Part shown: positions 8,631 through 38,204 of the stretch, piece by piece
Position numbering within the stretch: position 1 is the first letter of the stretch
Layout: every line of letters begins with the position of its first letter
Assembly: GCF_036507355.1 (NCBI RefSeq)
Contig: NZ_AP027877.1
DNA: 64,000 bases
Reading direction: 5' to 3' (one strand)
Source of the DNA: Escherichia coli
Lineage (GTDB): Bacteria > Pseudomonadota > Gammaproteobacteria > Enterobacterales > Enterobacteriaceae
Position numbers and translations under genes: made by a program
The notes under the pieces: model-generated
The model's database searches: none
Seen by the model: only the letters and a program-made list of their open reading frames with translations
What the model was told of the DNA's origin: nothing

Positions 8631-9704
<1,074 letters not shown>

Positions 9705-12704: not shown

Positions 12705-12820
12705 GTCGTTGTCTGCGGCATTTTTGTCGAGTGCCGTGTATAATAGGCAAAGTTATTTCCATTTTTGCAATCTGTTAGCAATAACAGGTTGATTATTAAG
12801 ATATTAAGGTGATTTAAATC

Positions 12821-13912: not shown

Positions 13913-13923
13913 ATAAAATTTGA

Positions 13924-14004
13924 TGTCTCATGAGGTTTCACTGAATCTCAGAACAACGGTAAAACTCTATAAAATCCACGCAATTGCGTGGATTTTTCAT
14001 TTCA
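13924..14004. repeat. Left copy of 81-bp imperfect direct repeat bounding the island (putative attL)
   Basis: 70 of 81 positions match 61769-61849; the last 37 bp are identical and include the palindrome AAAATCCACGCAATTGCGTGGATTTT. Confidence 0.8.
13971..13998 (+). terminator. Putative ychF rho-independent terminator (inside the repeat)
   Basis: Perfect palindrome followed by a T5 run, 60 bp after the ychF stop. Confidence 0.6.
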
Positions 14005-14041
14005 TGATGTCTCAAATCATCCCGTAAGAGCGCTGTCAAAA

Positions 14042-14095
14042 ATGAGTACATGAATGAGTACAACATTCTTCCATCTTCATTTTAAGTGAGTACAA
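14042..14095 (+). promoter_or_regulatory. Three (A/G)TGAGTACA repeats upstream of the integrase; candidate arm-type binding sites
   Basis: ATGAGTACA at 14042 and 14054, GTGAGTACA at 14087; similar pair ATGAGTATA / ATGAGTACA at 61669-61689. Confidence 0.4.
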
Positions 14096-14126
14096 TAACG
14101 GTATAATAAATAAACAAGGCCCCGTT

Positions 14127-15719: not shown

Positions 15720-17888
<2,169 letters not shown>

Positions 17889-17989
17889 CTAAGCATCACA
17901 GTGGCAGGTCGACAGGGACAAACCTGTGAGTCTGCAGGCTCGACGTTGTGACAGAAACAATCGCATCACACATCAACACCACAGCTTCC

Positions 17990-18270
17990 CGCTTCTGGTC
18001 TGTCGTCAATACTTTCGCCCAAGAACCACCTGAAGCGCCTGAAGCGCCTCCTTATCCGGCATGGCTTCAGCAAGCAGCTTCTTTGAGTCTGGCGTTCTCT
18101 TCCTCAAGCGACTCCAGGTGCTTAACCTCAAGCACCGCCATACTTCTTATGCTATGTGTAAAGAGTGGCATCGGAAATAGCGTGCTTGCAGCAGAGCTCA
18201 CGGGCAGAAACTCCAGCTTCTGCTTCACGGAGAACGCTGATTATCTGTTCGTCGGAAAAACGCTTCTTCA
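17990..18270 (-). mobile_element. Remnant of an IS3-family orfA (IS407/IS2-group-like), disrupted
   Basis: Minus-strand translation gives MKKRFSDEQIISVLREAEAGVSARELC... then ...KKYGGMEVPEVKRLKSLEEENARLKKLLAEAMLDKEAL, broken by a stop/frameshift; approximate boundaries. Confidence 0.45.
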
Positions 18271-18450
18271 TGGGAATCATATTCGGCGTCAGGGTCAATA
18301 TAAAGGCATTACTAGCATCGGGATGTACTAATCAACGGAGAGCAAGATCACATCCCTAACAGTATGACCAGATAAGCTATTCATAGTAAAAAAATATATC
18401 CACTAACCATCTAGAAGATAAGTCATGATTTTCACGGTAATGACTCCAAC

Positions 18451-18954
18451 TTATTGATAGTGTTTTATGTTCAGATAATGCCCGATGACTTTGTCATGCA
18501 GCTCCACCGATTTTGAGAACGACAGCGACTTCCGTCCCAGCCGTGCCAGGTGCTGCCTCAGATTCAGGTTATGCCGCTCAATTCGCTGCGTATATCGCTT
18601 GCTGATTACGTGCAGCTTTCCCTTCAGGCGGGATTCATACAGCGGCCAGCCATCCGTCATCCATATCACCACGTCAAAGGGTGACAGCAGGCTCATAAGA
18701 CGCCCCAGCGTCGCCATAGTGCGTTCACCGAATACGTGCGCAACAACCGTCTTCCGGAGCCTGTCATACGCGTAAAACAGCCAGCGCTGGCGCGATTTAG
18801 CCCCGACGTATCCCCACTGTTCGTCCATTTCCGCGCAGACGATGACGTCACTGCCCGGCTGTATGCGCGAGGTTACCGACTGCGGCCTGAGTTTTTTAAA
18901 TGGCGGAAAATCGTGTTGAGGCCAACGCCAATAATGCGTGCACTGGCGCGACAT
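18451..18954 (-). CDS. insB: IS1 InsB (expressed as InsAB' by frameshift)
   Basis: 167-aa ORF recognised as IS1 InsB. Confidence 0.93.
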
Positions 18955-19148
18955 CCGACGCCATTCATGGCCATATCAATGATTTTCTGGTGCGTACCGG
19001 GTTGAGAAGCGGTGTAAGTGAACTGCAGTTGCCATGTTTTACGGCAGTGAGAGCAGAGATAGCGCTGATGTCCGGCAGTGCTTTTGCCGTTACGCACCAC
19101 CCCGTCAGTAGCTGAACAGGTGGGACAGCTGATAGAAACAGAAGCCAC
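18873..19148 (-). CDS. insA: IS1 InsA
   Basis: 91-aa [43 protein letters not shown]... Confidence 0.93.
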
Positions 19149-19504
19149 TGGAGCACCTCAAAAACACCATCATACACTAAATCAGTAAGTTGGCAGCATC
19201 ACCTAAGTCTTGAGCCATTATTTCTATAAAATACATGTTAAATCATATTAGAATAGTTTATACGATAATTCGCTTGAAGAAGAAAAACACTATTCTAATT
19301 CAAACATTTTATATTATCAAGAACCATGGTAATTACAGTTAATTTACAGTATCAGTGATGTGGTTTCCAAAAAAGTATGCCCAAACATTTAAATATATGC
19401 CTTCGATAAATGAACTTTAACTCATCAGAATGACTACCCATCAATACTATTGAGTATATGAAGACAATTCACAGTCCCATCTGGCGAATTTTTCAGATGG
19501 CGAG

Positions 19505-22500
19505 TTAAATATCTTCTGGTGATTCCCCCAGATACATCTTACGGTAATGATACACTTCAAAGAATTTCCCCTTGTCTTTGTAACTACTGATAAAGTAGCA
19601 ATGTGTTAAATACTTTAGCAGGATCTCATTACCTTCAGTTTTGTGAACTTTTGCTCGTTTGGTTTTATCCGCAATCAAATTATATTCTTCCGACACGAAG
19701 GCCATAAGCGCACGATTGATGTATTCAAAAGGCAGTTCTTCACACTCTAAAAGATGATTCAAAAACACAAGTCGAGTGTCATCTTCCGAAACATTAAGAA
19801 GGAGTGCTATACTGACTTTACTATTTAGGCTTATATGGTCGAAGAAACTATTGGTATAGTGCGGCCAGAGAACATTGATGATTGAAACTTTAGTCGTCAA
19901 CTCTATATCGTCATCATTGAGCACAAGCTCAATAAGTTCATTATCGAAATCTTCGTCATCTTGCAGATAAAACTCAATATTATTTTCAAAAACAGCAAGG
20001 TTGTTTCTAATCATAAGCGACAGACACTCATTGAGGCCCTTGCGACGTTGTCCCTCATAAATGCTGAGTACGTCTTCATAGAGCGCTTCTGACAGCAAAA
20101 CTCTGTTGCTCTCACAAAGTGCTTTAAATTTTGTCAGTGGCAGGTCACTGATTACCTTGTCGATACTTACAGGCAGCACGCTGATCAACTGTGCATATAA
20201 CGCGTCTGGCTTATCCGCTGCTGAAATGATGTGATTCACAACATTATCAATAGACTCCTCAGGAACACTGACCTTATGGCCTGAAAGCACCTCTGGATGG
20301 TGAGCAAAAAACGCCCACAATATCTCATCGTCGACATCGGTATACATGTAGTTAAATATGTTATCCCAGTTGGCAGCGACACGCCCATGTTTAAACAAGA
20401 GGTCATAAACAGTGAATGACGCACCCTCAACTACCGATAGCCTGATATTTTCAACTGTCGACAACTGCTGAACTTCAAAATCCATGTTTTCAATTATAAT
20501 TTCTTTGGAACGCTCAGTAGCGTCTGAATTAATTAGTGAAATAACGGATCCAACGCTTTCCTCAGAATGAATGAAATATTCCACAATAAACATCTCAAGG
20601 TTTGTATTTACAGCCTCAATTAAGCATGGGACTTTTTCACTCATAATTAAGGTATATGGATTGCGCGATAGTTCCTCAACATTCTTTCTGTTATTAGAGT
20701 ACGCATTAAACAGTGCAGTGAGGTTATTAATATTAAATACATACAGAAAATTCTCTGCGATAAACTTCACCAACGTACGTTCACTTTCATCGTTAGCTTC
20801 ATTGACGCTATCGAATACAATATTGAGCTCTTTTAATTTTATGCTGAATGACGCAATCTCATCGGGTCGTATGTATGTAAACAACGTAGTGTCTGTTTTT
20901 AATTCATGCAGATAATCCTGAACAGCACTTTGTCGGGTAATGTTTTCTATCAGACCAAAACGAAGTAATGACACAAATAACTGCTGATAAAAATCATCAT
21001 CAGAGTCAATGTCACGGTAAGTACTCATCGCCGCCATCAATTTACCCAATGTCTTTTCATCGCTTAAAATTAAATTAATTAAGTCATGATAGTCATCATT
21101 ACTAAATTCATAAAAATACGTCCGCATAGTGCGAATGATTAAGCCATGTGAGCAATAATTAAATAAATGAATAAAAACATCACGGGCAAAACCAGCTCGG
21201 CAGTTGATCAAAAAGCTAATTATATGCGGATGAAAAATCCCCTCGTAATATTTAAATGATAGCGACTCCATTTTATCTACAACATTGGAAACGTTATTCA
21301 GATGAATATCTTTTAACTCCTCAAAATTCACCTTAGCAGCGACCTTCTGGATATAAACATTATCTGATTTACTTAATGCACCTGCATGGAAGATAGAGCG
21401 ATATTGCATGTAATCCTGCTCAATATATCCATTTGACAACATGAAAAACAACAATTCCATATTGAAATTAATCGCTGAAGGCTTGGATGCATTTTTATTT
21501 CCCTTATCGTCAGTTGATGCAACATTAAGCAACCACTCACTCAATTTCGCTAAGGTTATTTTTTCACATAATTCATGAAGTGATAGGCCATTTCGTTGAT
21601 TAAGAACACGCTGTGTGTTTAAAATATTTTTAGATAATTGCTCAACGGTTTTTTGGTTCTTATCTAAAATAACTGGTGAGCGTTTGTTATATTCACGTAA
21701 ACTCTCAGCTCGCTTATTATGTGGAATTTGGAAGGTATCTTGATATTCATACCCGTTTCTTGAATATGTGATAGCTATTCCGGATGGAAGCTCTCTGTTC
21801 AGAAAATCACAAAACAATGATTCATCCCCACAAAGTTCAACAAAGCTCCAGCTACTCCCAACTTGCCCATACTTATTATGGCTTATATAAAACACTGTAT
21901 TCGATTCAATTTGTTCAGGAAGATAACGCCTTAGAATTTCAACCCTCAGATTTAAACTGGATGTTTGCAATTCCTTTTGTACTTTCACCAACTTTTCTTT
22001 CTGCTGAGAAATCTTTATTTCCAAATCTTTAAAATACACGTCATGTAGCGTTCTCTTAGAGTAAGCATTAACTATTCTGTATAAAAAACCATCCTGATTA
22101 TCAAGCAGAGTGAAATCTTTGGTACATAAATTTTTATACATTATCAAAGAAAATAACTTCACATCAGAAATCTCACCCGTAATTAATTTTTTAAAAATAT
22201 TAAATTCATTTATAACATTATTCATCACCCGCATATCAGTCAGGTAAAGGGATACTTTCTTGAAAAACTGCTCTTTATCTACCGAATTAAAGTTTATAAC
22301 TTTACTACTTAATATGTCATACGCATTCTCACTATCTACTGCAGGTATAATCGGCACAATAAAATCAAAAAATTTTGTTTGTGATTCAGCATCCTTTAAT
22401 AAATCCTCCCTGACTGCAAAAATAAATTTAATCGGTTTCTTTTCCAATAGTCTGGAATTGTTTATCACTTGATTTATTTCACGGAGCTTAATAAAAATAT

Positions 22501-23407
22501 GACCATTGTTTAAACGGTCTAAATCTTCAAATACGACAACTCTATACTTTGTTTTAAGGAAGAAGTAAACAATCTCATCAATATACAAATTTAGCAGAGA
22601 AGCTGTATTCTGTTTTTCCGCCGCAATTTCTGCCTTTAAGAGATTTACTTTATCAAGAGCAATTTTTCTGTCAAAAAATCCTATCCGATAAAAACGAGAC
22701 AGCAGATACCAACAAATGATAAATGATAGCGAACCGATACATCCCCAACGCCATACCGGATGTATCGCAATGAAATGACTCACCGCTGACGGTAATGAAA
22801 ACGTGTTGATAATTTTTTGAGGAAACAACAATGTAGTGACAACGATTGTCAGTATGAGAACAAAAAACAGCAAACAGGATGTTATTAGTATTTGCCCAAC
22901 ACTTCGGGTGTGAATGCGCTCTACCCGCGAATCTGGCAGCGTACCTTTATCCACTTTGTATAAAATCTGCTGTAATATGCTGTATTCAATGCTTTGTTCT
23001 TTTGATAAAGACTCGGAACTTTTTAGTGTCTCATCCGTTTCAAAGTTTGCCAGTGAGATAATCACGTGCTCATCCGCTGGTTTTAAACTTGTAAACCTGA
23101 GCCAATATTTCAGGCGGTGCCACAACCGCTTTCGCCCTTCAATTTTTTTAAGGTATGAGAGAATAACCGAGCTTTTACCCGCGCCATAGGACCCCGTGAT
23201 GGCGATGTTCTTCACATCATCCCGGCTGAGGGCATAATCCAACGCCTTAAAATAGGGTTGATATCCCTCTTTATCAGGATCGACAATCGGTGTTAGCGTT
23301 TGGAATTCCCTTTCCGTTCCTGAATTGTTTTCTGAAGTAACCTGAAGCCTTGCGACTGTTTTATGCAACCAGTCTGCGATCGTTTTCAACCCGAAAGACA
23401 GCGCCAT
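19505..23407 (-). CDS. KAP-family P-loop NTPase with large C-terminal extension (1300 aa)
   Basis: Walker A GSYGAGKSS, two hydrophobic helices inserted before Walker B VVVFEDLDRL (KAP hallmark), then about 900 aa with no recognisable motif; gene visibly AT-rich. Confidence 0.75.
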   Translation of the reverse strand: MALSFGLKTIADWLHKTVARLQVTSENNSGTEREFQTLTPIVDPDKEGYQPYFKALDYALSRDDVKNIAITGSYGAGKSSVILSYLKKIEGRKRLWHRLKYWLRFTSLKPADEHVIISLANFETDETLKSSESLSKEQSIEYSILQQILYKVDKGTLPDSRVERIHTRSVGQILITSCLLFFVLILTIVVTTLLFPQKIINTFSLPSAVSHFIAIHPVWRWGCIGSLSFIICWYLLSRFYRIGFFDRKIALDKVNLLKAEIAAEKQNTASLLNLYIDEIVYFFLKTKYRVVVFEDLDRLNNGHIFIKLREINQVINNSRLLEKKPIKFIFAVREDLLKDAESQTKFFDFIVPIIPAVDSENAYDILSSKVINFNSVDKEQFFKKVSLYLTDMRVMNNVINEFNIFKKLITGEISDVKLFSLIMYKNLCTKDFTLLDNQDGFLYRIVNAYSKRTLHDVYFKDLEIKISQQKEKLVKVQKELQTSSLNLRVEILRRYLPEQIESNTVFYISHNKYGQVGSSWSFVELCGDESLFCDFLNRELPSGIAITYSRNGYEYQDTFQIPHNKRAESLREYNKRSPVILDKNQKTVEQLSKNILNTQRVLNQRNGLSLHELCEKITLAKLSEWLLNVASTDDKGNKNASKPSAINFNMELLFFMLSNGYIEQDYMQYRSIFHAGALSKSDNVYIQKVAAKVNFEELKDIHLNNVSNVVDKMESLSFKYYEGIFHPHIISFLINCRAGFARDVFIHLFNYCSHGLIIRTMRTYFYEFSNDDYHDLINLILSDEKTLGKLMAAMSTYRDIDSDDDFYQQLFVSLLRFGLIENITRQSAVQDYLHELKTDTTLFTYIRPDEIASFSIKLKELNIVFDSVNEANDESERTLVKFIAENFLYVFNINNLTALFNAYSNNRKNVEELSRNPYTLIMSEKVPCLIEAVNTNLEMFIVEYFIHSEESVGSVISLINSDATERSKEIIIENMDFEVQQLSTVENIRLSVVEGASFTVYDLLFKHGRVAANWDNIFNYMYTDVDDEILWAFFAHHPEVLSGHKVSVPEESIDNVVNHIISAADKPDALYAQLISVLPVSIDKVISDLPLTKFKALCESNRVLLSEALYEDVLSIYEGQRRKGLNECLSLMIRNNLAVFENNIEFYLQDDEDFDNELIELVLNDDDIELTTKVSIINVLWPHYTNSFFDHISLNSKVSIALLLNVSEDDTRLVFLNHLLECEELPFEYINRALMAFVSEEYNLIADKTKRAKVHKTEGNEILLKYLTHCYFISSYKDKGKFFEVYHYRKMYLGESPEDI

Positions 23408-23668
23408 TGAGTGTCCTCACAATCACGAATATTAAATTCATAAATTGGAGACAATCCTAACATGAATCAAAAGAATCATCACACAATCATGTAGTTAAAA
23501 GAACAAGCTGGAACCTGATTTTTTATAGCATTTTCACGCAGCACAGTTTTTGCCCACGATAGTATCACCGGATTACGCTCACTCAAGATCAAGCTTATCG
23601 TACACCCGCACTACATATCAGCTACACCCATCACCGTAACCGAGTCCCATCGATATTCACTGACTAGT

Positions 23669-23713
23669 GTTGATACACCCATATAGATATATATACCCAT
23701 TGAGTGTATCAAC
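23669..23713. repeat. Inverted repeat (10-bp arms GTTGATACAC / GTGTATCAAC around an AT-rich TATATATA core) between the 290-aa gene and the KAP NTPase gene
   Basis: Perfect 10-bp arms separated by 25 bp; candidate operator or attenuator. Confidence 0.4.
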
Positions 23714-23765
23714 TGATGGATTACATGCGTCTAAACGCTTATAGACATCCTGTCTTATGGACAAA

Positions 23766-24638
23766 CTACTTACGGGTTCTCACCCCAGAGGTAAATGTCA
23801 GTCCAGTAAACCCCATCTCATCCTGCTTACATAACGCCCGTGCCAACAGAACAGGCGGCAGCCTGTGTTTGGGGGTACGGCGTTTTCCTGCCTCATCAGG
23901 ATAAGGTCTTACTTCCAGCCACATCCCCTTGAAGCAGTATGTTACCTGCTCGTCAAAATCCTTCAGCTTCTGGCTTTTCATCGGCCGACTGATTATCCCC
24001 GCTCTGGCCCGCATATTTTTATCCCTCTTCATCGCCTTTCTTAGCGTTTTGAGCGCCCCCGGCTCTCTCGGCATCAGTAGATGCAGGTGAGGCATCCAGC
24101 GCTGGATATCGGTGTGAAAATCCAACTCGTAGTCACCCACTATTTTGCCCGTAAATCCGGCTCTTTTTATCATCTTGTAGACCCGCTCCCGGAACTTCTT
24201 ATGATCCCAGCGGCTGATCTCGTCTTCTTTCAGCATGGCATCGTAATAAACCAGCGTAACCACTCTGTACGCGCCCTTAGAGGCCCTCAGTGGGAGCAAT
24301 TCAGTCAGCTTACGTAACCTGTGCAGGCGGAAACACTGTGGGCAGGCCGCGCTACCACATTGATGTTCTGGCATACAGCCCTCCAGTTTTCTCTTTAACC
24401 GAAACATCCGCCCTCGCCACTTTTTGTGTGCTTTTCTGACTTCTTTGCTCTCATCCTGATTATCATTCCTGTTCTGCCGCACAGCCTTTCGTATTGCTTT
24501 TATGCGGTACAGGCGTTCCTTCTCCATTTGCTCCCGGGTTTCAAAACCCGGAATGGTAAGAGCTAACTTTTCCAGTTGGCGCTCTTCTTCTGTCAGTGAT
24601 GCATACACTGCTCGCGCAATACGGTTTGTACCAAACAT
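23766..24638 (-). CDS. Hypothetical protein with Cys-rich zinc-finger-like motif, immediately downstream of alpA
   Basis: ORF 23766-24689; start placed at the ATG at 24638 adjacent to the alpA stop; contains CMPEHQCGSAACPQC; no confident family. Confidence 0.6.
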   Translation of the reverse strand: MFGTNRIARAVYASLTEEERQLEKLALTIPGFETREQMEKERLYRIKAIRKAVRQNRNDNQDESKEVRKAHKKWRGRMFRLKRKLEGCMPEHQCGSAACPQCFRLHRLRKLTELLPLRASKGAYRVVTLVYYDAMLKEDEISRWDHKKFRERVYKMIKRAGFTGKIVGDYELDFHTDIQRWMPHLHLLMPREPGALKTLRKAMKRDKNMRARAGIISRPMKSQKLKDFDEQVTYCFKGMWLEVRPYPDEAGKRRTPKHRLPPVLLARALCKQDEMGFTGLTFTSGVRTRK

Positions 24639-24639
24639 A

Positions 24640-24834
24640 TCAGCAACCTCCTCTGGTCCCACGGGAAGCAATCCACTCATTGACTTCACTTTCCAGCCAG
24701 GCCACCGCTCGTCCTCCTGTCAGGGATTTTTGGCGTGGGAAAGTCCCTTTTTCAATCATCCGGTACAGTGTGGCGCGGCTCACCGCACAGCGTTCCAGCA
24801 CAGCCTGAATTTTGACCAGTTTCATATCATTCAT
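24640..24834 (-). CDS. alpA: AlpA-family phage transcriptional regulator / excisionase-like protein
   Basis: 64-aa ORF with AlpA-type HTH (RCAVSRATLYRMIEKGTFP). Confidence 0.85.
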   Translation of the reverse strand: MNDMKLVKIQAVLERCAVSRATLYRMIEKGTFPRQKSLTGGRAVAWLESEVNEWIASRGTRGGC

Positions 24835-24941
24835 GTTTCAACGTTCCTCAACAAGGAAAGGGAACGCGCTATTAACAAGATCCAAAATCGGGGCTCTGTG
24901 AGGGGGGGGTTGGGACGTCTACTGGCTCGTTTCATACCTAT

Positions 24942-25547
24942 TTGTCGGGCCGACACTTTATGTCCATTGTCGGTCCGACAAAAGAGTCGTTAGAATGCTC
25001 AAAAATGAATGCATCAACGGGAGTTCGCGTGACAGGAAAAAGGCAGACCAGCCGCCAGAAACGGTCAGATAAAATGAGGAAAAATGCAGGATTGACTCAA
25101 GTGAAGGTTTACCTGGATGAAACCACTCTGCAGTTACTGGGGTTACTTCAGGAAAATATGTCAGAAGGTGATATGAAGGGTGATGAGGTCAATATGTTCC
25201 GTAGCATGGCTATAACGGCCAGTATCCACACCCTGGCAAAAGAACGACTGGGGGAACAAGAAGTATCGCATATGGTGATCAAGAACCTCGGTGCTGACTG
25301 CCCATCCGACGAAGCGACAGAAAACCCACGTAAGTTTCTTCTCCGGACGATGATTAACCACCTGTATGATAATGGCACACACAATCCGCACCGCCGTCGA
25401 TTGTCAGAAGTGGCTGGAATTATGAATGAAAGCAGTTTCAGGAACCCGAAGAACAAAAAAGGGGGATGGAGTGAAAATGATATCAGTCACTATGTCAGCA
25501 ATGACATAAAACTGGAAAATGATACCTCGGTTGATGTACCGGGCTAA
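24942..25547 (+). CDS. Hypothetical protein, divergent from alpA
   Basis: 201-aa ORF; true start uncertain; no recognisable motif. Confidence 0.45.
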   Translation: MSGRHFMSIVGPTKESLECSKMNASTGVRVTGKRQTSRQKRSDKMRKNAGLTQVKVYLDETTLQLLGLLQENMSEGDMKGDEVNMFRSMAITASIHTLAKERLGEQEVSHMVIKNLGADCPSDEATENPRKFLLRTMINHLYDNGTHNPHRRRLSEVAGIMNESSFRNPKNKKGGWSENDISHYVSNDIKLENDTSVDVPG

Positions 25548-25760
25548 GCAAATCTATACACCAATATATTTATCTCTGGAATACCCTGGTCGGGGAGCAC
25601 GAATTAGTTATTCATCAGGGGTGGTGAGTTGGTCGTGCTTTCCCGGAAGGCAGGTGCGCCAACGCCAGTACTTGGTATACCTGTGGGCTATCAAAAATAG
25701 TCTCTGGCCCCGTTTGATGGTTTTAACCAACAGGCTGCGGTGGTCATCCCCCATGAAAGC

Positions 25761-26708
25761 TTACCAGCAACATAGCGCCCTGGAGGCTCTGTCTACAGCC
25801 TGCCTGCCCCTACAGTCATAGCGTGTGGTCGTGGATATATCCGCATGTCCTGCCAACTGGCGCACCACATTAATGTCCACTCCCTGCTCCAGCAGGCGGG
25901 TGATGAATGTCCGTCGCAGGTCGTGGGGGGTGAAGTAATCCACTTCTGCAGCTTCGCGTAACTGCGCCAACAGCCCTGTAAGACCCGTGGTGGTAAGCCG
26001 TTGTCGTCCTGGCTGCCCCGCACGACTGATGCGACTGAACAGCGGCCCGGCATGATACCCCCGGAGCTTCAGCCATCGCCGCAGTTGCATGCAGACTTTT
26101 CCGGAAAGGTGGATTTCCCGGATTTTGCGCCCCTTTCCCTGCCTGACAATCACGATCCCCGTGGCTACATCTATATCTCCCACGTCCAGGGCTACCAGTT
26201 CGGCGGCACGCAGACCTGCGCCACACAGAAGCAGCAAAATAGCCCGATTACGCTGGCAACGTACAGCGTCAGCCTTTCCGGCCGCCGCCAGCATGGCCCG
26301 AATTTCGGTCCTGTCCAACGCCCTGCCCAAGCGGGTGGCACTGCCAGTGACACGCCTGACTGAACGTATGCGCGTCAGTCTGTCAGCATCCAGAATCCCC
26401 ATACTGAAAGCCGCTCCGGCAACCGATTTCAGCGCCGACAGCGCCATGTTCACCGTGGCAACAGCATAGCCCTCATCCAGCAGCACCGAGCGTACCCGCA
26501 TCACGCTCGTGTAGTCCAACGTATGCCAGGGGTAGGTGTCGGGCTTCGCCCCCGGACGGAGGATACCGGCACATCGTCGGAGTAAGCTTTGCATCCCCCT
26601 GCGCCCGGCTGGCGTCAGGCTTGCCAGCCACAGCAATGCTGGGTTGATGGAGAGGGCATTTTGCGGGTGGACAGATGCCGCGCGTTTACCATTGCGGCTC
26701 GTGGTCAT
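25761..26708 (-). CDS. Tyrosine-type site-specific recombinase (XerC/XerD-like, about 315 aa)
   Basis: Catalytic-box residues (R in LRAAEL, HDLRRTF, ISTTTRY); visibly GC-rich relative to neighbours. Confidence 0.8.
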   Translation of the reverse strand: MTTSRNGKRAASVHPQNALSINPALLWLASLTPAGRRGMQSLLRRCAGILRPGAKPDTYPWHTLDYTSVMRVRSVLLDEGYAVATVNMALSALKSVAGAAFSMGILDADRLTRIRSVRRVTGSATRLGRALDRTEIRAMLAAAGKADAVRCQRNRAILLLLCGAGLRAAELVALDVGDIDVATGIVIVRQGKGRKIREIHLSGKVCMQLRRWLKLRGYHAGPLFSRISRAGQPGRQRLTTTGLTGLLAQLREAAEVDYFTPHDLRRTFITRLLEQGVDINVVRQLAGHADISTTTRYDCRGRQAVDRASRALCCW

Positions 26709-26784
26709 AATATCATCCTTATTATTGATAGTGGGATATCCCGGTCAGGTCTGACCGGGAGTGAGGGTTAATATGTCTTCGTAG

Positions 26785-27405
26785 TCAGCGTTTTTTCACA
26801 CCATAATGCTGAAGGTAGCGATTCAGGCTCCGACCAGCGCCAGTCTCAAAATTCCATGTCCGCCAGATAAGCTGCCCCACTGTGTCGCGTATCACCAACC
26901 GGAAGTGGGTATGCAGGTCATCCTCAATGGCGACATTTTTATACGTCGCAACCACAGCCTCTGCTTCCAAACGAGTAAACGAATCTGGGGGCAGTTGTGG
27001 CGTCTGTATTGTGGGCTCTGGTGCTGCGCGGTCAGGACGTGAATGCCGTCCCTGTGTGATGTGACTGACGGCTTGGTAACTGCTCTGCCTCAGAAGTCCG
27101 GTGGTCTTCCTTGCCCGGAGAATATCAATGGAGGTAATGTGCGGAGACTGGGGGATAAAGCTGACATTACCCTGGTCTGTACGTACCAGGTCGTACTTTT
27201 CAACAATAGAATTCAGGGCCTCCGTCAGTGATATCTCTGCATCAATGTATGCCTGAATGGCACCTTTCCCGCTAAACGGCGTGTCGCTGAGAGTGAGTCC
27301 GTAGTGCTTCTCCAGCAAGTAAGCCAGCAGAGTGTGCCAGACATCAGCAGGGGACAGGCAACACGATAGTGTCCGATTTGGTGAGACCGGTTGTTTTTTC
27401 ATCAC
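26785..27405 (-). CDS. CbtA/YpjF/YkfI-family toxin (type IV TA), C-terminally extended
   Basis: N-terminal ~120 aa match the CbtA family ([11 protein letters not shown] ... [13 protein letters not shown]); about 80 extra C-terminal residues. Confidence 0.75.
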
Positions 27406-27511
27406 TGTATTCTCGCGGATAACATTGAAAAAGACGCGCGAACGTGAACATCAATTGAACGTCCGCACTTATTGGAATCCGTCGGCCAGACGGGCAAAAA
27501 GTGACTTCCAT

Positions 27512-27871
27512 CTACTGTCCCGAAGACCGGGAAGCCATGGGATAAATGGCGATATATACGTAGCCACAGGAGCCGAGCGTGTTAGCCTCGCAGATCAGCC
27601 CTTCTACCTGTAGCGTGATCCCCTTCGCCCTGCGCGGGTCCAGTTCACCGGACAGCAGAATGCTTTCCATCTGCCTCATGAGCAGCGGAAATATCTGGTC
27701 CAGATGGCGTGCGTCTCTGTCGCTGAACGTACCGGTGAATTCAGCCCGGTCAGCCAGAAAATGCAGGCAGCCGCCCTCCTGCACCAGACGCGCCCCGAAG
27801 CATGGCGTCACGTTGCACTGTAGCCCCCACAGATCTGTGGGTGGCGTATCGTAGTCTTTCAGATCTGTCAT
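27512..27871 (-). CDS. CbeA/YfjZ/YafW-family antitoxin
   Basis: WGLQCNVTPCFGARLVQEG motif; ATG at 27871 preceded by a GAGGA ribosome-binding site. Confidence 0.8.
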   Translation of the reverse strand: MTDLKDYDTPPTDLWGLQCNVTPCFGARLVQEGGCLHFLADRAEFTGTFSDRDARHLDQIFPLLMRQMESILLSGELDPRRAKGITLQVEGLICEANTLGSCGYVYIAIYPMASRSSGQ

Positions 27872-27931
27872 GTCAGGTGTCCTCAAAAGTCGCACTGCCA
27901 GTGCATCAATCTGGCAATGCTGGGTAGTTCT

Positions 27932-28369
27932 TCAGCTTTCCCACAGCACGCGCGTGGTGTAGACCCCGCTGGCGTAGTAGCTCAGGAAGTTACGCTCCCA
28001 CAGGCTGTAAAGCGCCCTTACTTCCGTTAGAGGCAAATCCCCCGTACAGTAGTGCCAGACATAGCCCTGCGACCAACTGATATCGATGATTTTCTCCAGC
28101 TCCGGGTAGACCGTGCCGACATAGCCAAAATCGGTGGCGTAGTCCAGGCACCACTCATCGCCCTGATGAATTAGCCGGATCTCCACCGGGTGATAACCCC
28201 CCCGCTCCACACTGTAGTCCGGGTCCCGGAAGTTGAATGTCACGGCGGTGATCCGATGTTTATGGGCGGGTATTTCGCCCGCCTCTGCCATCAGCAGTTC
28301 GTACAGTTGCAGACTGACAGGCAGCATAAAGCCTGCCGGCTGAATAACGGCATTGATGTTCAAGAGCAA
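27932..28369 (-). CDS. Hypothetical protein between the RadC-like and antitoxin genes
   Basis: 145-aa ORF in the position occupied by small DUF proteins in CP4-type cryptic prophages; no motif recognised. Confidence 0.55.
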   Translation of the reverse strand: MLLNINAVIQPAGFMLPVSLQLYELLMAEAGEIPAHKHRITAVTFNFRDPDYSVERGGYHPVEIRLIHQGDEWCLDYATDFGYVGTVYPELEKIIDISWSQGYVWHYCTGDLPLTEVRALYSLWERNFLSYYASGVYTTRVLWES

Positions 28370-28454
28370 AACCTCAGTGTTTACAGTTTAAAAAAACGTG
28401 AAGGGATAAAGCGGACGTGTCTTAGCGTGGATAATGTGTATTAAACCAGGTAAC

Positions 28455-28943
28455 TCACAGTAGCCCGTGTTCAGCGAAAGACCAGGCTTTGTCGCCTCCC
28501 ACAATGAGATGGTCGGTCACGCGGATATCCAGCAACGCCAGTGCGTCTGTAATTTTTTGGGTAATGAGTTTATCGGCCTGGCTCGGTTCAGGCTCACCAC
28601 TGGGATGGTTATGCACCAGTATCACAGCAGCAGCGTTGTGCGTCAGTGCCAAGCTGACTATTTCGCGGGGATAAACCATCGTCTGGCTCAGCGTACCGAT
28701 AAACAATGTCTGGTAGCCGAGAATATGATGTTGCTGTGAAAGCATTATCACACCAAAAGATTCACGGTTTTCAAGCGCCAGCTTCATCACCAGCCACTGA
28801 CGTACATCTTCAGATGAGGTGATTTTTCGGCGATTGCGAAACTGGCGGGTCAGCAATGAATGGGCAAACCGGATAATCTGTTCGCGGGTAACCGGCTCCA
28901 GCGTCTGATAATGACCGCTACGATCACTTGCGATAAACGTCAT
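28455..28943 (-). CDS. RadC-like JAB-domain protein (YeeS/YfjY/YkfG family)
   Basis: JAMM-like motif HNHPSGEPEPS; start at the ATG at 28943 with GGAG ribosome-binding site. Confidence 0.85.
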   Translation of the reverse strand: MTFIASDRSGHYQTLEPVTREQIIRFAHSLLTRQFRNRRKITSSEDVRQWLVMKLALENRESFGVIMLSQQHHILGYQTLFIGTLSQTMVYPREIVSLALTHNAAAVILVHNHPSGEPEPSQADKLITQKITDALALLDIRVTDHLIVGGDKAWSFAEHGLL

Positions 28944-28965
28944 GATGTACTCCTTACCTTTTAGT

Positions 28966-29589
28966 TCAGAATTCACGTTCAACAAAGTAAATGGCATCCG
29001 GCAGCAACGTATGGCGCTTCAGCTCAGGTTGTACTGAAAACGTGTCCTTTCGCTGGCTGCGTATCCCCAGGCTATCAAACAAAAACAACCGGGTAGCATC
29101 GGTACGAACCACCACTGACCAGTGCCATGTGGTCCCCATAATCACCACGCGCTGCGCCTGATTCTCCGGTGAAGCCAGCCAGTCGCTGATATCATGAAAT
29201 ATTCGGTGAGTTCTCAAGGTTCGATAACGGAAGGGAGTATGAAAATAGAGGGGATAATGTTGGGCGTAATGCCCTCTCAGCAGAACATCTGCTATCAGGT
29301 GGTCCATCTGCTCTTCATCCAGGCCAAGCGTCAGGAGATCAAATAAGTCCCATCGTCGCTTATAGCTGCTTAGCAGGCGGTACATTAATTTTTCCCGCCT
29401 TACCCTGCCGTCATAGAGGTAACTCAGGGTATTAATCAGGCTGTAGATGCCACACAAATAGTCATGCTGTCCCTGGCGGGACGCATGAACGTCTCGAGGA
29501 AGTGTCATTGTAAATTTCCGGGATAAGTGATGGCTGTGAACCAGCCGGAATGGTGGTGATACAGTGGCTGAGCGCATGATGGCAGCCAC
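28966..29589 (-). CDS. Hypothetical protein
   Basis: 207-aa ORF in the same operon-like array; start uncertain. Confidence 0.5.
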   Translation of the reverse strand: MAAIMRSATVSPPFRLVHSHHLSRKFTMTLPRDVHASRQGQHDYLCGIYSLINTLSYLYDGRVRREKLMYRLLSSYKRRWDLFDLLTLGLDEEQMDHLIADVLLRGHYAQHYPLYFHTPFRYRTLRTHRIFHDISDWLASPENQAQRVVIMGTTWHWSVVVRTDATRLFLFDSLGIRSQRKDTFSVQPELKRHTLLPDAIYFVEREF

Positions 29590-29665
29590 TGTATAAATTA
29601 TAACAAAATCAATACATTAATGCAAGTGATTCTTGTTATCACTTATCCAGCGACTCCTTCACTTG

Positions 29666-30046
29666 TTACTGGTTAACGTCTCCTTCAGACAGGTCCCTTG
29701 CAACCTGAGCCAGAGCCTGCTGCAAAAGTTTATCCCTAGAGGCCGGTTTCATGGTACGGAACAACTGTATCCACAGGTTAAGCTGCTCGTCTGCTGAAGT
29801 ATCTGCCGCATCCCGCTCACTTTTCAACGCCATCCCTGCCGCGCTGATATGGTACAGAAACCCCTTCCCACTGGTGCGTTTGCGGCGGATTTCCGGATGT
29901 AGGGCTGTGAGCTTTTCCAGACGTAGCCGCGCCCATTTCGCTGTGCCCGGCATTCCTTCCATTCCGGCAAACTGCTCTGCTGTAAGCCACTCCCCACTGT
30001 CCGTCATTCCGGCATCACAGGGCTCAGTCATCTGTTCACTGCTCAT
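29666..30046 (-). CDS. Hypothetical protein, possibly DNA-binding
   Basis: 126-aa ORF; IS5 inserted about 30 bp upstream of its start codon. Confidence 0.5.
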   Translation of the reverse strand: MSSEQMTEPCDAGMTDSGEWLTAEQFAGMEGMPGTAKWARLRLEKLTALHPEIRRKRTSGKGFLYHISAAGMALKSERDAADTSADEQLNLWIQLFRTMKPASRDKLLQQALAQVARDLSEGDVNQ

Positions 30047-30078
30047 AAAATTTCACCTCTTATCAAAGCGTTAGTTAA

Positions 30079-31272
<1,194 letters not shown>

Positions 31273-31368
31273 CTAAATGAGCGCAAATAACCACAAAAGG
31301 AACTTGATAACTTCCCTTTGTTTGCTTTTAATATCTCCGGTACTAACAACCCGGAGTGAATACATTGA

Positions 31369-31635
31369 GTAACTCAACAGATTCGCAAAAAAAAGCGAAG
31401 TAAGGGAAGTGCTGTTAACTGGCACCGGGCAGATATTGTCGCCGCCCTGCATAAGCGGGGACTTTCCCTGTCAGCTCTCTCCCGGCAACACGGGCTGGCT
31501 TCCAGGACGCTGAATAACGCTTTTGAGCGCCACTATCCGCGGGCGGAAAAGATTATTGCGGAGGCACTGAACACTACGCCCGAAACCATCTGGCCTGAGC
31601 GCTATGCAGGTAGGTCTGTCAAAAACGAAAGCTGA
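31369..31635 (+). CDS. Ner/Nlp-like small DNA-binding protein; no canonical start codon in frame (possible pseudogene)
   Basis: Open frame encodes ...VNWHRADIVAALHKRGLSLSALSRQHGLASRTLNNAFERHYPRAEKIIAEALNTTPETIWPERYAG; no in-frame ATG/GTG/TTG after the stop at 31366. Confidence 0.45.
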   Translation, partial: VTQQIRKKKRSKGSAVNWHRADIVAALHKRGLSLSALSRQHGLASRTLNNAFERHYPRAEKIIAEALNTTPETIWPERYAGRSVKNES

Positions 31636-31647
31636 AGAAAGCATGTT

Positions 31648-32175
31648 ATGTCGACCACCATTACTGAAGTAACGGAATGCTTTGAGTACCTTTTTAGTTC
31701 CCTTTACCGGAAAGCATTTGTCAAAACCCTGCGCCTTAACGAATGCAGTGAACGGGAGTTGCTACCGCTGGTACGCTGCTACCTGCTGGGTTGGTTTGCC
31801 GACAGCGTCTCACCGGAAGTCCGGGGGAAACTGCCCGGCAGTATCTCCGGGCATGGCTATATTGATTTCGTCATTGACGATGTGGCAGTGGAGTTCGCCG
31901 TCCGTAAGCCAGGAGCCGCCCGTTCTGCACTGTCAGCCTCAGTCAACAGCACGGAGGTAAAGAAACTGATGAAGTATGACGGCAAAGCCCTGCTGGTACT
32001 GTTCGATTTTTCTGACACGCCCTATACCGAAGAACAGATTGAATCCTTCAGAAACTGGCCCTCCCTGGGCCGAGGCAACCATCGTAAATCCGCGTTCAAT
32101 GTTGCGTATTTCTTTGTGGAAAAACGCAGCCCGCTGACACCCAGGAAAATCACCAGAAATATCCGCATCCGTTAA
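31648..32175 (+). CDS. Hypothetical protein
   Basis: 175-aa ORF; start 13 nt after the Ner-like stop; no confident family. Confidence 0.55.
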   Translation: MSTTITEVTECFEYLFSSLYRKAFVKTLRLNECSERELLPLVRCYLLGWFADSVSPEVRGKLPGSISGHGYIDFVIDDVAVEFAVRKPGAARSALSASVNSTEVKKLMKYDGKALLVLFDFSDTPYTEEQIESFRNWPSLGRGNHRKSAFNVAYFFVEKRSPLTPRKITRNIRIR

Positions 32176-32228
32176 CGGTAGCGCGCATAACGGATAATGA
32201 AAACGTCAATGAAAGGAGATCACCGAAG

Positions 32229-32747
32229 ATGAGGAAAACCGCTGCCATGTTGCTTCTGGCATTTTCAGGTTGTGCCGGGGCAAAAACACTCCCCGCAGAA
32301 AATTTGCAGGGGCTGTATGAGGCTTATGCCACCCTGAATACCTGCCACCAGTATGGTTACACTGGCGATGAGGCCTTAACTGCACTGGACAAACTTATCC
32401 GCAGCAATCGCTATCAGGATAATAGCGGCAACATCATGACATTAATGAAGGACAATATTAACTATTACCATTCCCTTCAGGACCGCTTTATTCTTGAGCA
32501 GCAATTCAAAAGCGAAGGAATAAACCAGAGCGGTATCCGGCTCCAGATAAAAACCCTCTGCGACCAGATGAACGCCGCTGTTGGTGGGAAGTTGGGTGTG
32601 AAAACCCGTGTTATTTCACCGGATGACCTTCCCACCAGCGCAAAACCTGTTTTTGACAAACCGGTCACTAACAGTGCCCCGGCAATTCCGGAAGACCGAC
32701 CGATGACATGGGACAACAGTCCGGTCCAGGGTATTCCGGTTCAGTGA
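32229..32747 (+). CDS. Putative lipoprotein
   Basis: N-terminal signal peptide with lipobox-like LLLAFSGCAG. Confidence 0.6.
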   Translation: MRKTAAMLLLAFSGCAGAKTLPAENLQGLYEAYATLNTCHQYGYTGDEALTALDKLIRSNRYQDNSGNIMTLMKDNINYYHSLQDRFILEQQFKSEGINQSGIRLQIKTLCDQMNAAVGGKLGVKTRVISPDDLPTSAKPVFDKPVTNSAPAIPEDRPMTWDNSPVQGIPVQ

Positions 32748-32758
32748 GGGGTAACACC

Positions 32759-33073
32759 ATGAAGAAGCATATTATTACCGCACTGCTCATCACAACAGTA
32801 TCCGCTCCGGCGCTGGCAGCGTACCCGGTAAGCCAGCCTGCTCAGGCCGCAGAAGTGATGGTCAGTATATGCCAGCAGCAGCGTTCGGGTATGGACAAGA
32901 ACCAGGCCATCCGTAAAGTCTATGGCACCGTAAGCGACTGGCCCATAGCTTCAACAACTGAAGTTGCTGCTGCGATGGATGAAGGATGGAATTTTGCTGT
33001 ACAAAATCCAGAGATAAGTTGCGACAGAATTTATCTCATGATGATTGACATGCTGGATGGGAAAAAGGATTGA
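32759..33073 (+). CDS. Small secreted protein
   Basis: Start at ATG 32759 with GAGGGG ribosome-binding site; signal peptide MKKHIITALLITTVSAPALAA. Confidence 0.6.
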   Translation: MKKHIITALLITTVSAPALAAYPVSQPAQAAEVMVSICQQQRSGMDKNQAIRKVYGTVSDWPIASTTEVAAAMDEGWNFAVQNPEISCDRIYLMMIDMLDGKKD

Positions 33074-33379
33074 GAAACCAAGCTTAACTTAAGTTGGCAA
33101 AACTAATCTGCATCAATTAAAATTTTACATAGCAATGTGCCCTCCAGCAGGGCACAATTATTATAAACCGTCTGCTATGAGCTGTGAGTTCAATGGGTCG
33201 ATGCAACGCTATTCTTAAATGAGAAGGACATTGACCGACTACGGTCAATAAAACAGTTTGAAGCAAAATCAGATTGCCTCAGCCCCTATCGTTCAGCATG
33301 ATTTTCCTGGAGAAAAGCGGTTTTGTGGCGGACCTGAACGGGCCGCCAGGTAAAACTCTGCTGCGAGAAAGAGGCCACA

Positions 33380-34146
33380 TCAGGCGGTGTGGTTGCTATC
33401 ATCTTGCATGAGATGGTTGGCTCGAAAGACCATCATCCCTTTTTGTCGAATAGCGTCAATCCACAAATCTGCCATCCACGAGTTGATGCCATAATGCTGG
33501 ATACAACATTCACGTATCAGCCGGTGTTCGTTCGCAATGGTAGTTGGCATCAAGGCGCTGTCATCCGTATTTAAACACACCGCCAGCGGCCCGCTGCGCA
33601 GGCCGTATTGGTTAAATTTTCCGCCGGTCGCCAACCATTCTGGATTAGGTGGATTCCAGCGAAAAAGCGGGTGTTCGTGATATTTCTCAAACCGACCAAT
33701 ATAAATATTTGAGGTTGGGCAGGCTTCAAACACTAAACCAAGACGGCTGTATTTTTCGGTTAGGTAATCCTGAATGGCTTCATACAGCTTAAGCTCCCCC
33801 TGAGAAATGAAATCCTCATCTTCAGACAGGGGCGACAAATAGCTATCAGTATCGTTAGGACAACAGTTAATGCAAATAATCCGGTTGGCGGGCTCCTTTT
33901 CATGCAAACCGCTGTTGAGATAGCGTTGCCATAAACGATAAGCAGTGACATTTTTCACTGACGGCGTATGATCTTCTTGCAACGCATCCCAGTCAGGGGC
34001 CCATTCCAGCCTATTCGCGCTGACGGACTCCAAGTTAGCATAATCAGGCCAATTGCGGCGCAGCAGCCACGCCTGATAAAGTAAGTTAGGCGTATAGATA
34101 TCTTTAAATATCCGCTGCGACCAGTGATGAATTTTATCGCGCAATT
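33380..34146 (-). pseudogene. Adenosine/AMP-deaminase-like metal-dependent hydrolase, C-terminal fragment truncated by IS1
   Basis: Contains deaminase-like motif region HEHPLFRW ... LAVCLNTDDSALMPTTIANEH; frame stays open up to the IS1 terminus at 34147, no genuine start. Confidence 0.5.
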
Positions 34147-34201
34147 GGTGATGCTGCCAACTTACTGATTTAGTGTATGATGGTGTTTTTGAGGTGCTCC
34201 A

Positions 34202-34477
34202 GTGGCTTCTGTTTCTATCAGCTGTCCCTCCTGTTCAGCTACTGACGGGGTGGTGCGTAACGGCAAAAGCACCGCCGGACATCAGCGCTATCTCTGCTCT
34301 CACTGCCGTAAAACATGGCAACTGCAGTTCACTTACACCGCTTCTCAACCCGGTACGCACCAGAAAATCATTGATATGGCCATGAATGGCGTTGGATGCC
34401 GGGCAACTGCCCGCATTATGGGCGTTGGCCTCAACACGGTTTTACGTCACTTAAAAAACTCAGGCCGCAGTCGGTAA
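34202..34477 (+). CDS. insA: IS1 InsA
   Basis: 91-aa ORF near-identical to the insA of copy 1. Confidence 0.93.
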
Positions 34478-34899
34478 CCTCGCGCATACAACCGGGCAGT
34501 GATGTGATTGTCTGCGCTGAAATGGACGAACAGTGGGGCTACGTCGGTGCTAAATCACGTCAGCGCTGGCTGTTTTACGCGTATGACAGGATACGGAGGA
34601 CAGTTGTGGCGCACGTTTTCGGTGAACGCACTCTGGCCACACTGGAGCGTCTTCTGAGCCTGCTGTCGGCCTTTGAGGTCGTGGTATGGATGACGGATGG
34701 CTGGCCGCTGTATGAATCACGCCTGAAGGGAAAGCTGCACGTTATCAGCAAGCGTTACACTCAGCGCATTGAGCGACATAATCTGAATCTGAGACAACAT
34801 CTGGCAAGGCTGGGACGGAAGTCACTGTCGTTCTCAAAATCGGTGGAGCTGCATGACAAGGTCATCGGGCATTATCTGAACATAAAACACTATCAGTAA
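34396..34899 (+). CDS. insB: IS1 InsB
   Basis: 167-aa ORF near-identical to the insB of copy 1. Confidence 0.93.
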
Positions 34900-35069
34900 G
34901 TTGGAGTCACTACCGTAGAAGTTAAATCAGGAAAATCGAAAAAAATGAAACGTTCGGCATTGTCGTCGAGTTCCGCTTAATGACGTATCCATCCCGTTTT
35001 CCCCTTCACGTTTTCATGTTTGATAGAGGGCAAAATTGAGCCCTCTCAATCAAGATAATGAGTGAAAAC

Positions 35070-38000: not shown

Positions 38001-38204
38001 CACCTCATCCAGCACGGCAACCGGGAGATGTGGGTTAATCTTTTGCAACTGCTCCAGTAGCACCGGGCGCAAAAACACATCGTGGAACGACGCACGCAGC
38101 GGATTGTTGCCATCTGGCGCAATATCCGGCCCGTGCAATACTTCCCAGCCCAGTTCAGCAAACCATTGCAGGCTTTGCTGTTCTAAATCGTCTTCGCTCA
38201 GCAT
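35070..38204 (-). CDS. hsdR: Type I restriction enzyme R subunit (HsdR)
   Basis: 1044-aa ORF with helicase motifs (Walker [13 protein letters not shown] box [10 protein letters not shown]). Confidence 0.9.

Follow-up and report, generated by a model that had tools for sequence, protein, structure and literature searches.

Two copies of IS1 in inverted orientation bound a segment of about 15 kb in a 64,000-nt stretch of Escherichia coli DNA (contig NZ_AP027877.1; hereafter, the window). This arrangement raises the question of whether the segment flips between its two boundaries, was brought in by them as a unit, or simply lies between two separate insertions. The initial annotation had proposed that homologous recombination between the copies would invert the segment, and that a truncated deaminase gene at one inner junction was consistent with IS1-mediated rearrangement.

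The IS1 pair and the genes around it

An inverted repeat search returned a single pair, 18434-19203 and 34147-34916, of 770 nt with 93% complementarity and 14,943 nt apart. Pairwise alignment reduced each copy to its true bounds of 768 bp (Table 1), in agreement to the base with the initial annotation, and the extra 2 nt in the repeat-search bounds were found to be a chance GT match outside IS1. The left and right copies, IS1-L and IS1-R, differ by 54 mismatches over 768 bp (93% identity) with no indels. The longest perfect runs (119, 82, and 43 bp) all lie inside IS1 positions 1-246, a stretch with just two mismatches. Identity of 93% over 768 bp greatly exceeds anything expected by chance, and the two sequences are copies of a mobile element that is very abundant.

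Both copies combine the length of about 768 bp with the imperfect terminal inverted repeats of about 23 bp that define the IS1 family. The repeats are present as GGTGATGCTGCCAACTTACTGAT / GGTAATGACTCCAACTTATTGAT, and the other terminus of both copies is the reverse complement of ...ATCA(A/G)TAAGTTGGAGTCA(T/C)TACC. The insA and insB' ORFs are intact in both, with the Pfam domains Zn_ribbon_InsA, HTH_Tnp_IS1, and DDE_Tnp_IS1, and both carry the A6C motif for -1 frameshifting, AAAAAAC (within TTAAAAAACTC). In copies identical to those of the window, RefSeq annotates a programmed-frameshift transposase. The copy at the IS1-L site in strain B27 is named "IS1A family". IS1-L and IS1-R are two different isoforms.

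Direct comparison of the 9-bp flanks of IS1-L (GATTTTCAC / TAAGTCTTG) and of IS1-R (CGCGCAATT / GTAGAAGTT) revealed no target-site duplication; the 8-9-bp duplication that the IS1 family leaves around a simple insertion is thus absent from either copy. The flanks were also unmatched when swapped, as after an inversion, or when the outer flanks were compared with each other, as for a composite transposon. The lack of a duplication at each copy speaks against a simple insertion and leaves the identification as IS1 untouched. Missing target-site duplications typically result from adjacent deletion or IS-IS recombination (PMC11708052), and their absence here is attributed to the flanking deletions seen in comparison with strain A19 (below).

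The segment between the copies is part of a chromosomal E. coli anti-phage defence island located between ychF and ycgV. The defence systems of this island comprise Tmn, RADAR, a type I restriction-modification (R-M) system, Zorya, PDC-M09, a Dsr1-like gene, and Olokun, several of which are IS-truncated remnants. The genes listed initially (KAP, alpA, a toxin-antitoxin pair, and IS5) were all recovered, as a KAP/YobI NTPase, AlpA, YeeU with a CbtA remnant, and ISKpn26, and two of the genes could be named more closely. The large NTPase was identified as the defence gene Tmn, predicted from a single full-length KAP/YobI-type gene that matches the PADLOC profile (E = 4e-222; profile positions 7-1250 of 1273) and Pfam YobI-ATPase (E = 1.3e-96). 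The truncated deaminase was re-annotated as the rdrB remnant of a dead RADAR system. It retains the last 254 codons, and its match to the PADLOC RdrB profile spans positions 606-853 of 855 (the C-terminal 248 residues). RADAR is composed of rdrA and a full-length rdrB; the N-terminal approximately 600 codons of rdrB and the entire rdrA are missing from the window according to PADLOC, and RADAR is therefore dead in the window.

Table 1. Features of the IS1-bounded segment and its flanks.
Feature	Coordinates	Strand	Remarks
Degenerate IS3-family transposase remnant	17748..18435	-	Outer left flank; adjoins decayed IS21/IS100kyp
IS1-L, complete, 768 bp	18436..19203	-	IRR end outward (18436), IRL end inward (19203); RefSeq "IS1 family transposase"
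Tmn, predicted single-gene anti-phage system	19505..23407	-	KAP/YobI P-loop NTPase, 1300 aa, intact; Pfam and PADLOC
Hypothetical gene	23766-24638	-	Island backbone
AlpA regulator	24640-24834	-	Island backbone
Hypothetical gene	24960-25547	+	Island backbone
Tyrosine recombinase	25761-26708	-	Island backbone
DUF905, CbtA toxin remnant, YeeU antitoxin, DUF2787, RadC/JAB, two hypothetical genes	26785..30046	-	Coordinates carried over from the ET881 annotation (offset +7999)
IS5-family ISKpn26	30079..31273	+	Simple insertion by comparison with IS-free islands; repeated TAA/YTAA target
Frameshifted HTH gene	31365-31635		ISKpn26 lies upstream
Three hypothetical genes	31648..33073	+	Kept in every island version; no PADLOC match
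rdrB remnant (RADAR adenosine deaminase)	33380..34144	-	Adjoins inner end of IS1-R
IS1-R, complete, 768 bp	34147..34914	+	IRL inward (34147), IRR outward (34914); RefSeq "IS1X2 family"
Type I R-M (hsdR, DUF4268, hsdS, hsdM) and first ~297 zorA codons	34915..43721		Outer right flank
hsdR	35070-38204		

Comparison with IS1-free and sibling islands

The island was compared across 5,426 complete E. coli genomes, a set that does not include the window's own genome. The closest matches to window positions 17000-36500 in that set were ET881 (92% covered) and ET826 (80%). IS1-free versions of the island were found in A19 and in 20 or more further genomes; the interior of the window segment is colinear with them and runs the same way with respect to ychF and the left flank. 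Against A19, colinearity and orientation hold to the left and right of IS1-L and throughout the interior. In place of A19 positions 10445-14354 the window has IS1-L, with the outer left flank ending at A19 position 10444; the stretch lost is a 3.9-kb module of helicase, DarT-family, and ADP-ribosylglycohydrolase genes. The inner junction of IS1-R falls at A19 position 28096, inside rdrB. PADLOC analysis of A19 identified the genes missing from the window as those for a DarT-family protein, a UvrD-like helicase beside it, and RdrA and RdrB, both at full length. The origin of the truncated deaminase in an IS1-mediated rearrangement was thereby supported, with a junction inside the rdrB of IS1-free islands and no target-site duplication.

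The hsdR flank outside IS1-R was found in 64 genomes, and in both genomes inspected (JKHS016 and E24377A) it is part of another island, located at the pao locus, where it follows a UvrD-like helicase gene. Because no genome was found with RADAR contiguous to the R-M/Zorya module, the outer junction of IS1-R could have been made by recombination between IS1 copies of two different elements, not by simple deletion.

Sibling strains carry further versions of the same junctions. With 0-1 differing bases per kb of island DNA, the window, ET881, ET826, and ET729 are nearly identical, indicating that the deletions are recent and occurred within one lineage. The outer-left junction with IS1-L is identical in these four and in B27. 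The inner end of IS1-L abuts window position 19204 in the window and ET881, 19272 in B27, 23150 in ET826, and 23397 in ET729. ET826 and ET729 have each lost Tmn, through independent deletions that are flush with this end. The outer end of IS1-R abuts position 34915 in the window and ET826, or 52573 in ET881, from which 34915-52572 has been wholly deleted, flush with IS1-R. Each of the sibling-strain deletions (68 bp, 3.9 kb, 4.2 kb, and 17.7 kb) begins exactly at an IS1 terminus. ET729 and B27 have IS1-L without IS1-R.

The breakpoints are thus exact and free of target-site duplications, they form a nested series with one fixed junction, and the interior keeps its ancestral orientation. Very probably, two IS1 isoforms inserted independently into a multi-system defence island and each has acted as a deletion generator, their inverted orientation being incidental. 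One IS1 end would remain fixed while adjoining DNA of variable length is lost. By this process IS1-L would have taken out the helicase/DarT-family/ADP-ribosylglycohydrolase module, and IS1-R would have taken out the rdrB N-terminus with rdrA, joining the remnant to the upstream region of the type I R-M/Zorya module; both elements would then have kept deleting in the sibling strains. In mutation accumulation experiments, IS1 ranks with the most active insertion sequences of E. coli, and IS-associated deletions gather around pre-existing copies (PMC5009759).

Insertion presumably preceded deletion; a simple IS1 insertion with its target-site duplication, the state before each founding deletion, was not found in any genome. 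The molecular route may have been intramolecular replicative transposition in one step; alternatively, IS1 may first have made a local hop in direct orientation, after which the two copies recombined, as proposed in PMC5009759. These routes are indistinguishable from the final sequences because both leave the same product.

Inversion and transposition as alternatives

Recombination through the two IS1 copies could also make the segment flip, with the two orientations coexisting or alternating among strains. The minimal processing segment of RecA/RecBCD recombination is about 25-30 bp, which the perfect runs of 119 and 82 bp in these 768-bp inverted repeats exceed. The IS1-L of B27, moreover, differs from that of the ET strains by a clustered patch of 13 substitutions, which shows that homologous exchange of sequence among IS1 copies does take place here. 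Inversions bounded by insertion sequences are also recorded in E. coli evolution experiments, as cited in PMC5009759.

Chimeric queries were built for both predicted post-inversion junctions and run against the complete genomes. Neither junction was present in any of the 5,426, where each assembly gives one consensus orientation and a low-frequency inversion in culture would be invisible; no match exceeded 70% coverage, a level equal to one flank plus IS1. An invertible segment would be expected in both orientations among genomes, but the siblings and the IS-free relatives share a single one, which all four genomes with IS1-L keep. The flanks, as described above, do not pair in the swapped configuration. 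Mismatch repair lowers recombination between diverged copies, and the overall divergence of 7% is expected to cut exchange strongly. Flipping would also alter no gene-promoter relationship in an obviously useful way. Among related genomes, the outcome is largely the one that the initial annotation had said would refute its proposal, a single orientation. An actively flipping segment is therefore improbable. Of the initial proposal, the physical capacity for inversion stood, given 246 bp with two mismatches, but its occurrence among related islands did not; RecA-mediated inversion between IS1-L and IS1-R, without evident function, is possible in principle. The rearrangements actually documented at this locus are deletions anchored at IS1 ends, not inversions.

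Composite transposons are formed by IS1 in either arrangement, with direct copies in Tn9 and inverted copies in Tn1681. Positions 18436-34914 superficially fit the latter, as two complete and apparently functional inverted copies enclose cargo with a defence gene, and Tmn and its neighbors might have come in as one piece. However, no 9-bp duplication surrounds the whole unit (GATTTTCAC versus GTAGAAGTT), IS1-free islands at this chromosomal locus hold the cargo at the same place, with its order and orientation unchanged, and ET729 and B27 lack one of the two boundaries. Among E. coli genomes the IS1-bounded unit was found only between ychF and ycgV in sibling strains. The one plasmid that carries the interior, Salmonella pIndS104-CTX, holds the whole IS1-free island; other plasmid matches were to ISKpn26 alone. 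Lacking a duplication around the unit and any occurrence at unrelated loci or replicons, the composite transposon is contradicted, and we consider it very unlikely.

IS1 transposes replicatively and can yield deletion or inversion products. A duplicative inversion, in which intramolecular replicative transposition of one IS1 leaves in a single step inverted copies around an inverted segment, would allow the missing target-site duplications at both copies, but it is contradicted and hardly credible: a newly made copy would match its parent perfectly, whereas IS1-L and IS1-R have 54 mismatches in 768 sites and bear different RefSeq isoform names, the interior shows no inversion when set against IS1-free islands, and IS1-L occurs without IS1-R in B27 and ET729.

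Wider setting and related systems

The inverted IS1 pair is an ordinary feature of an already known kind, and the process behind it is textbook. As neither a switch nor a transposon, but two ordinary insertions, it matters little beyond housekeeping. The sibling comparison, on the other hand, provides a tidy natural example of insertion sequences pruning defence islands gene by gene, and bears on how fast immune repertoires turn over. The near-identical island of the five genomes might further be read as a series of snapshots, in nature, of immune systems being lost to insertion sequences over time, with the repeated loss of Tmn reflecting selection against a costly defence gene beyond the mutational bias of IS1, a reading that we regard as doubtful. 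Part of it, held just as tentatively, is that at least seven independent deletions were anchored by the fixed ends of the two IS1 copies and one IS3-family element. If true, a DarT-family module, RADAR, Tmn (in two events that end at different points), type I R-M, and Zorya would have been stripped successively.

The island resembles the E. coli defence islands at integrase-marked hotspots in bearing an integrase and many defence systems, and differs from them in that several systems here are IS-truncated remnants (Hochhauser et al., 2023; PMC10121019). Neither ychF nor ycgV is mentioned in the main text of that survey. With the IS-flanked inversions of the E. coli long-term evolution experiment, the locus shares the required substrate, a same-family inverted IS pair on one replicon; unlike those, the window copies are not identical but 7% diverged, and the inverted product occurs in no genome. 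The likeness to Tn9 and Tn1681 lies in cargo between two complete IS1 copies, and B27, in which Tmn alone lies between two direct IS1 copies, has the arrangement of Tn9; the window differs in having no flanking target duplication, no second locus, and cargo in its ancestral island context. Adjacent deletions are classical for IS1, as in the gal region, and are explained by intramolecular replicative transposition. Those deletions share with the present ones a fixed IS1 end, variable endpoints flush at the terminus, loss of the target-site duplication, retention of the element, and deleted lengths from tens of bp to tens of kb. The present cases come from natural isolates and the classical ones from selection experiments, with no mechanistic difference between them.

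IS1 copies and island content

Exactly one long inverted repeat is present in the window, with arms at 18434-19203 and 34147-34916 that are 93% complementary and lie 14,943 nt apart. When the arms and their flanks were aligned, the homology was bounded by the canonical IS1 termini, and the elements are thus a left copy (IS1-L) and a right copy (IS1-R) of equal length, exactly at the coordinates that the initial annotation gave for two inverted IS1 copies. The insA and insB′ reading frames are intact in both copies, which also retain the A6C frameshift motif and contain the Pfam InsA zinc-ribbon, InsA HTH, and IS1 DDE transposase domains. The copies differ by 54 substitutions and no indels. Two of the mismatches fall within IS1 positions 1-246 (perfect runs of 119, 82, and 43 bp), and the remaining two-thirds of the element show approximately 10% divergence. 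According to RefSeq names taken from identical copies in sibling genomes, IS1-R is "IS1X2 family" and IS1-L is "IS1 family." The copies are thus two isoforms and not a recent duplication.

At the IS1-L site, the IS1 of sibling genome B27 (locus L005, 20601-21368) carries 13 substitutions relative to that of the ET strains and the window, grouped within IS1 positions 220-304, and one more at 471. This cluster looks like a conversion tract from another IS1 copy, suggesting that IS1 copies at this site exchange sequence.

The island is located on the E. coli chromosome, where the core genes ychF and ycgV flank it. The KAP NTPase, alpA, toxin–antitoxin genes, and IS5 element expected between the IS1 copies were recovered as a full-length match to the single-gene defence system Tmn, AlpA, YeeU with a CbtA remnant, and ISKpn26. 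Right of the IS1 pair, PDC-M09 A/B (E = 2e-120 and 3e-214) and Olokun OloB/OloA (E = 6e-58 and 8e-77) are further intact defence candidates within the regions 45154-47444 and 55853-59843. The Dsr1-like SIR2 gene (51007-52998) carries a G-to-A change at 52271 (W422* relative to ET826), and this nonsense change is one of only two differences from ET826 in 15.6 kb. Even in ET826, two genes make up the Dsr1-like protein, one for the SIR2 part and the other (window 53104-54882) for the C-terminal part. The second integrase is of P4 type and lies beside ycgV (60247-61482, minus strand); the sibling genomes have a plus-strand integrase beside ychF.

Features of the island and IS junctions in the window and sibling genomes (inner and outer ends of an IS1 copy face the interior, i.e., the island DNA between the copies, and away from it, respectively)
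Feature	Window position	Strand	Description
IS1-L	18436-19203	-	768 bp; arm alignment
IS1-L inner end, window and ET881	abuts 19204		
IS1-L inner end, B27	abuts 19272		68 bp lost
IS1-L inner end, ET826	abuts 23150		3,946 bp lost
IS1-L inner end, ET729	abuts 23397		4,193 bp lost
Tmn	19505-23407	-	1300-aa KAP/YobI P-loop NTPase; interior; full-length match to PADLOC model, E = 4e-222
AlpA regulator, tyrosine recombinase, RadC, DUF2787, several hypothetical genes	interior		
YeeU antitoxin, CbtA remnant	interior		
ISKpn26 (IS5 family)	30079-31273		interior; simple insertion relative to IS-free islands
rdrB remnant	adjoins IS1-R		254-codon ORF; C-terminal end of RADAR adenosine deaminase RdrB, profile positions 606-853 of 855
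IS1-R	34147-34914	+	768 bp; arm alignment
IS1-R outer end, window and ET826	abuts 34915		
IS1-R outer end, ET881	abuts 52573		17,658 bp lost, R-M system included
Type I R-M system, then truncated zorA	outside IS1-R		
zorA remnant	42801-43721		
IS3-family element	43722-~44990		cuts zorA after ~297 codons
PDC-M09, Dsr1-like SIR2 gene, Olokun, second integrase	beyond zorA remnant		

Comparison with IS1-free islands and orientation of the interior

The same island, approximately 99.5% identical and lacking both IS1-L and IS1-R, is present in more than 20 complete genomes. Base-level mapping to one of them, strain A19, demonstrated that the window is colinear and in the same orientation over the left flank and the whole interior. 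IS1-L stands in place of 3,910 bp of A19 (locus positions 10445-14354), which encode a UvrD-like helicase (annotated as 3'-5' exonuclease), a DarT-family ADP-ribosyltransferase, and an ADP-ribosylglycohydrolase. The inner junction of IS1-R corresponds to A19 position 28096, within rdrB, and the remaining rdrB and the whole of rdrA are absent from the window. Comparison of the flanks revealed no 9-bp target-site duplication at either copy; GATTTTCAC, TAAGTCTTG, CGCGCAATT, and GTAGAAGTT were unmatched in direct, post-inversion, or composite-transposon outer-flank pairing. A missing duplication is expected after adjacent deletion or IS–IS recombination (PMC11708052).

On plasmids, the interior was found only in Salmonella enterica pIndS104-CTX (CP101356.1; 323 kb), as a complete IS1-free island (149124-182201, 99.6% identity) that adjoins transfer genes and carries the DarT module, Tmn, and intact rdrA/rdrB. 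Either the whole island or a large part has therefore been transferred from one replicon and one genus to another.

The initial annotation proposed that homologous recombination between IS1-L and IS1-R would invert the interior. Its view that an IS1-mediated rearrangement took place is borne out by the cut in rdrB at the IS1-R inner junction, but the inversion itself is unsupported. When related islands were compared for both orientations, the interior had one orientation in every relative, the same as in the IS1-free islands; therefore, the present arrangement is itself no inversion product. Queries were built for the two predicted junctions, one running from the left flank through IS1 into the reverse-complemented rdrB remnant and the other from the reverse-complemented Tmn-side flank through IS1 into the hsdR flank. 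Among 5,426 complete E. coli genomes, assemblies of which give the consensus orientation only, coverage of either query never exceeded 70%, the share made up by one flank plus IS1. The true junctions were matched in siblings at 100%. The near-identical 246-bp stretch is longer than the shortest homology on which RecA/RecBCD can act, which makes recombination physically possible, and the apparent sequence exchange at the IS1-L site also speaks for recombination, but the 7% overall divergence of the copies should depress exchange and flipping has no apparent regulatory consequence. Short reads are blind to such IS-bounded inversions (PMC5009759).

An IS1 composite transposon was excluded, with no outer duplication and the cargo in its ancestral context; two genomes have IS1-L but no IS1-R, and the IS1-bounded unit was found at no other site. 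Duplicative inversion as the origin of the pair was excluded by the 54 copy differences and the ancestral interior orientation.

Deletions anchored at IS termini

The outer-left junction of IS1-L is common to four complete genomes, ET881, ET826, and ET729 from frog faeces and sediment (Shantou) and B27 from a housefly (Thailand), and the junction between the rdrB remnant and IS1-R is common to two of these (ET881 and ET826). Across the island, all three ET genomes show 0–1 differences per kb from the window, indicating that the shared junctions are identical by descent. Each sibling has its own losses, every one of which starts exactly at an IS terminus, and Tmn was removed independently in ET826 and ET729. 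Classically, IS1 adjacent deletion is recognised by one fixed IS end, variable endpoints, and no duplication, and the sibling pattern, as read from the junction sequences, matches this signature. This pattern also fits E. coli mutation-accumulation lines, where IS-associated deletions cluster near pre-existing IS1 and IS5 copies (PMC5009759). Each deletion could have arisen by one-step intramolecular transposition or in two steps, with a local hop first and recombination between direct copies second; the final sequences are compatible with both routes.

In other genomes inspected, the hsdRMS–Zorya DNA that lies outside IS1-R here is part of another island, situated at the pao locus, where a UvrD-like helicase gene precedes it, and RADAR contiguous with this module was found in no genome. 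The outer junction of IS1-R may have formed when part of a tandem island was deleted or when IS1 copies of two elements recombined.

A second IS family, IS3, shows the same terminus-anchored nested deletions. ET826 keeps intact zorABCD as far as the IS3-family element, whose left end is at 43722; flush with this end, the window lacks 7,170 bp (mid-zorA through zorD, including zorB and zorC). The deletion in ET729 has the same anchor and is larger, taking window 33277-43721, and IS1-R with it, on top of these 7,170 bp. Overall, the IS1 pair represents ordinary insertions whose terminus-anchored deletions have trimmed a defence island, a kind of event already known; its value is modest, as a clean natural example of the IS-driven loss of anti-phage systems.

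Surrounding window and the island of B27

IS3-family copies in direct orientation are also located at 41-1272 and 63128-64000, with 300 nt at 100% identity and the match running to the window end. The ldr toxin repeat region holds the left copy and, in B27, an IS3 as well. Recombination between these copies would delete approximately 62 kb, including ychF-prs-hemA. Left of the island, core genes at 9000-14000 (prs-dauA-pth) show 3–11 differences per kb from ET881, ET826, ET729, B27, and A19 alike, and the island is identical to that of the ET strains; the backbone at prs-dauA-pth and the island seem to have different recombination histories.

A further IS1B in B27 connects window 23464 with 62202, and the rest of the island (23465-62201) is lost. 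Tmn alone remains between two direct IS1 copies, IS1A-like and IS1B (L005 20601-26329), a layout that resembles Tn9.
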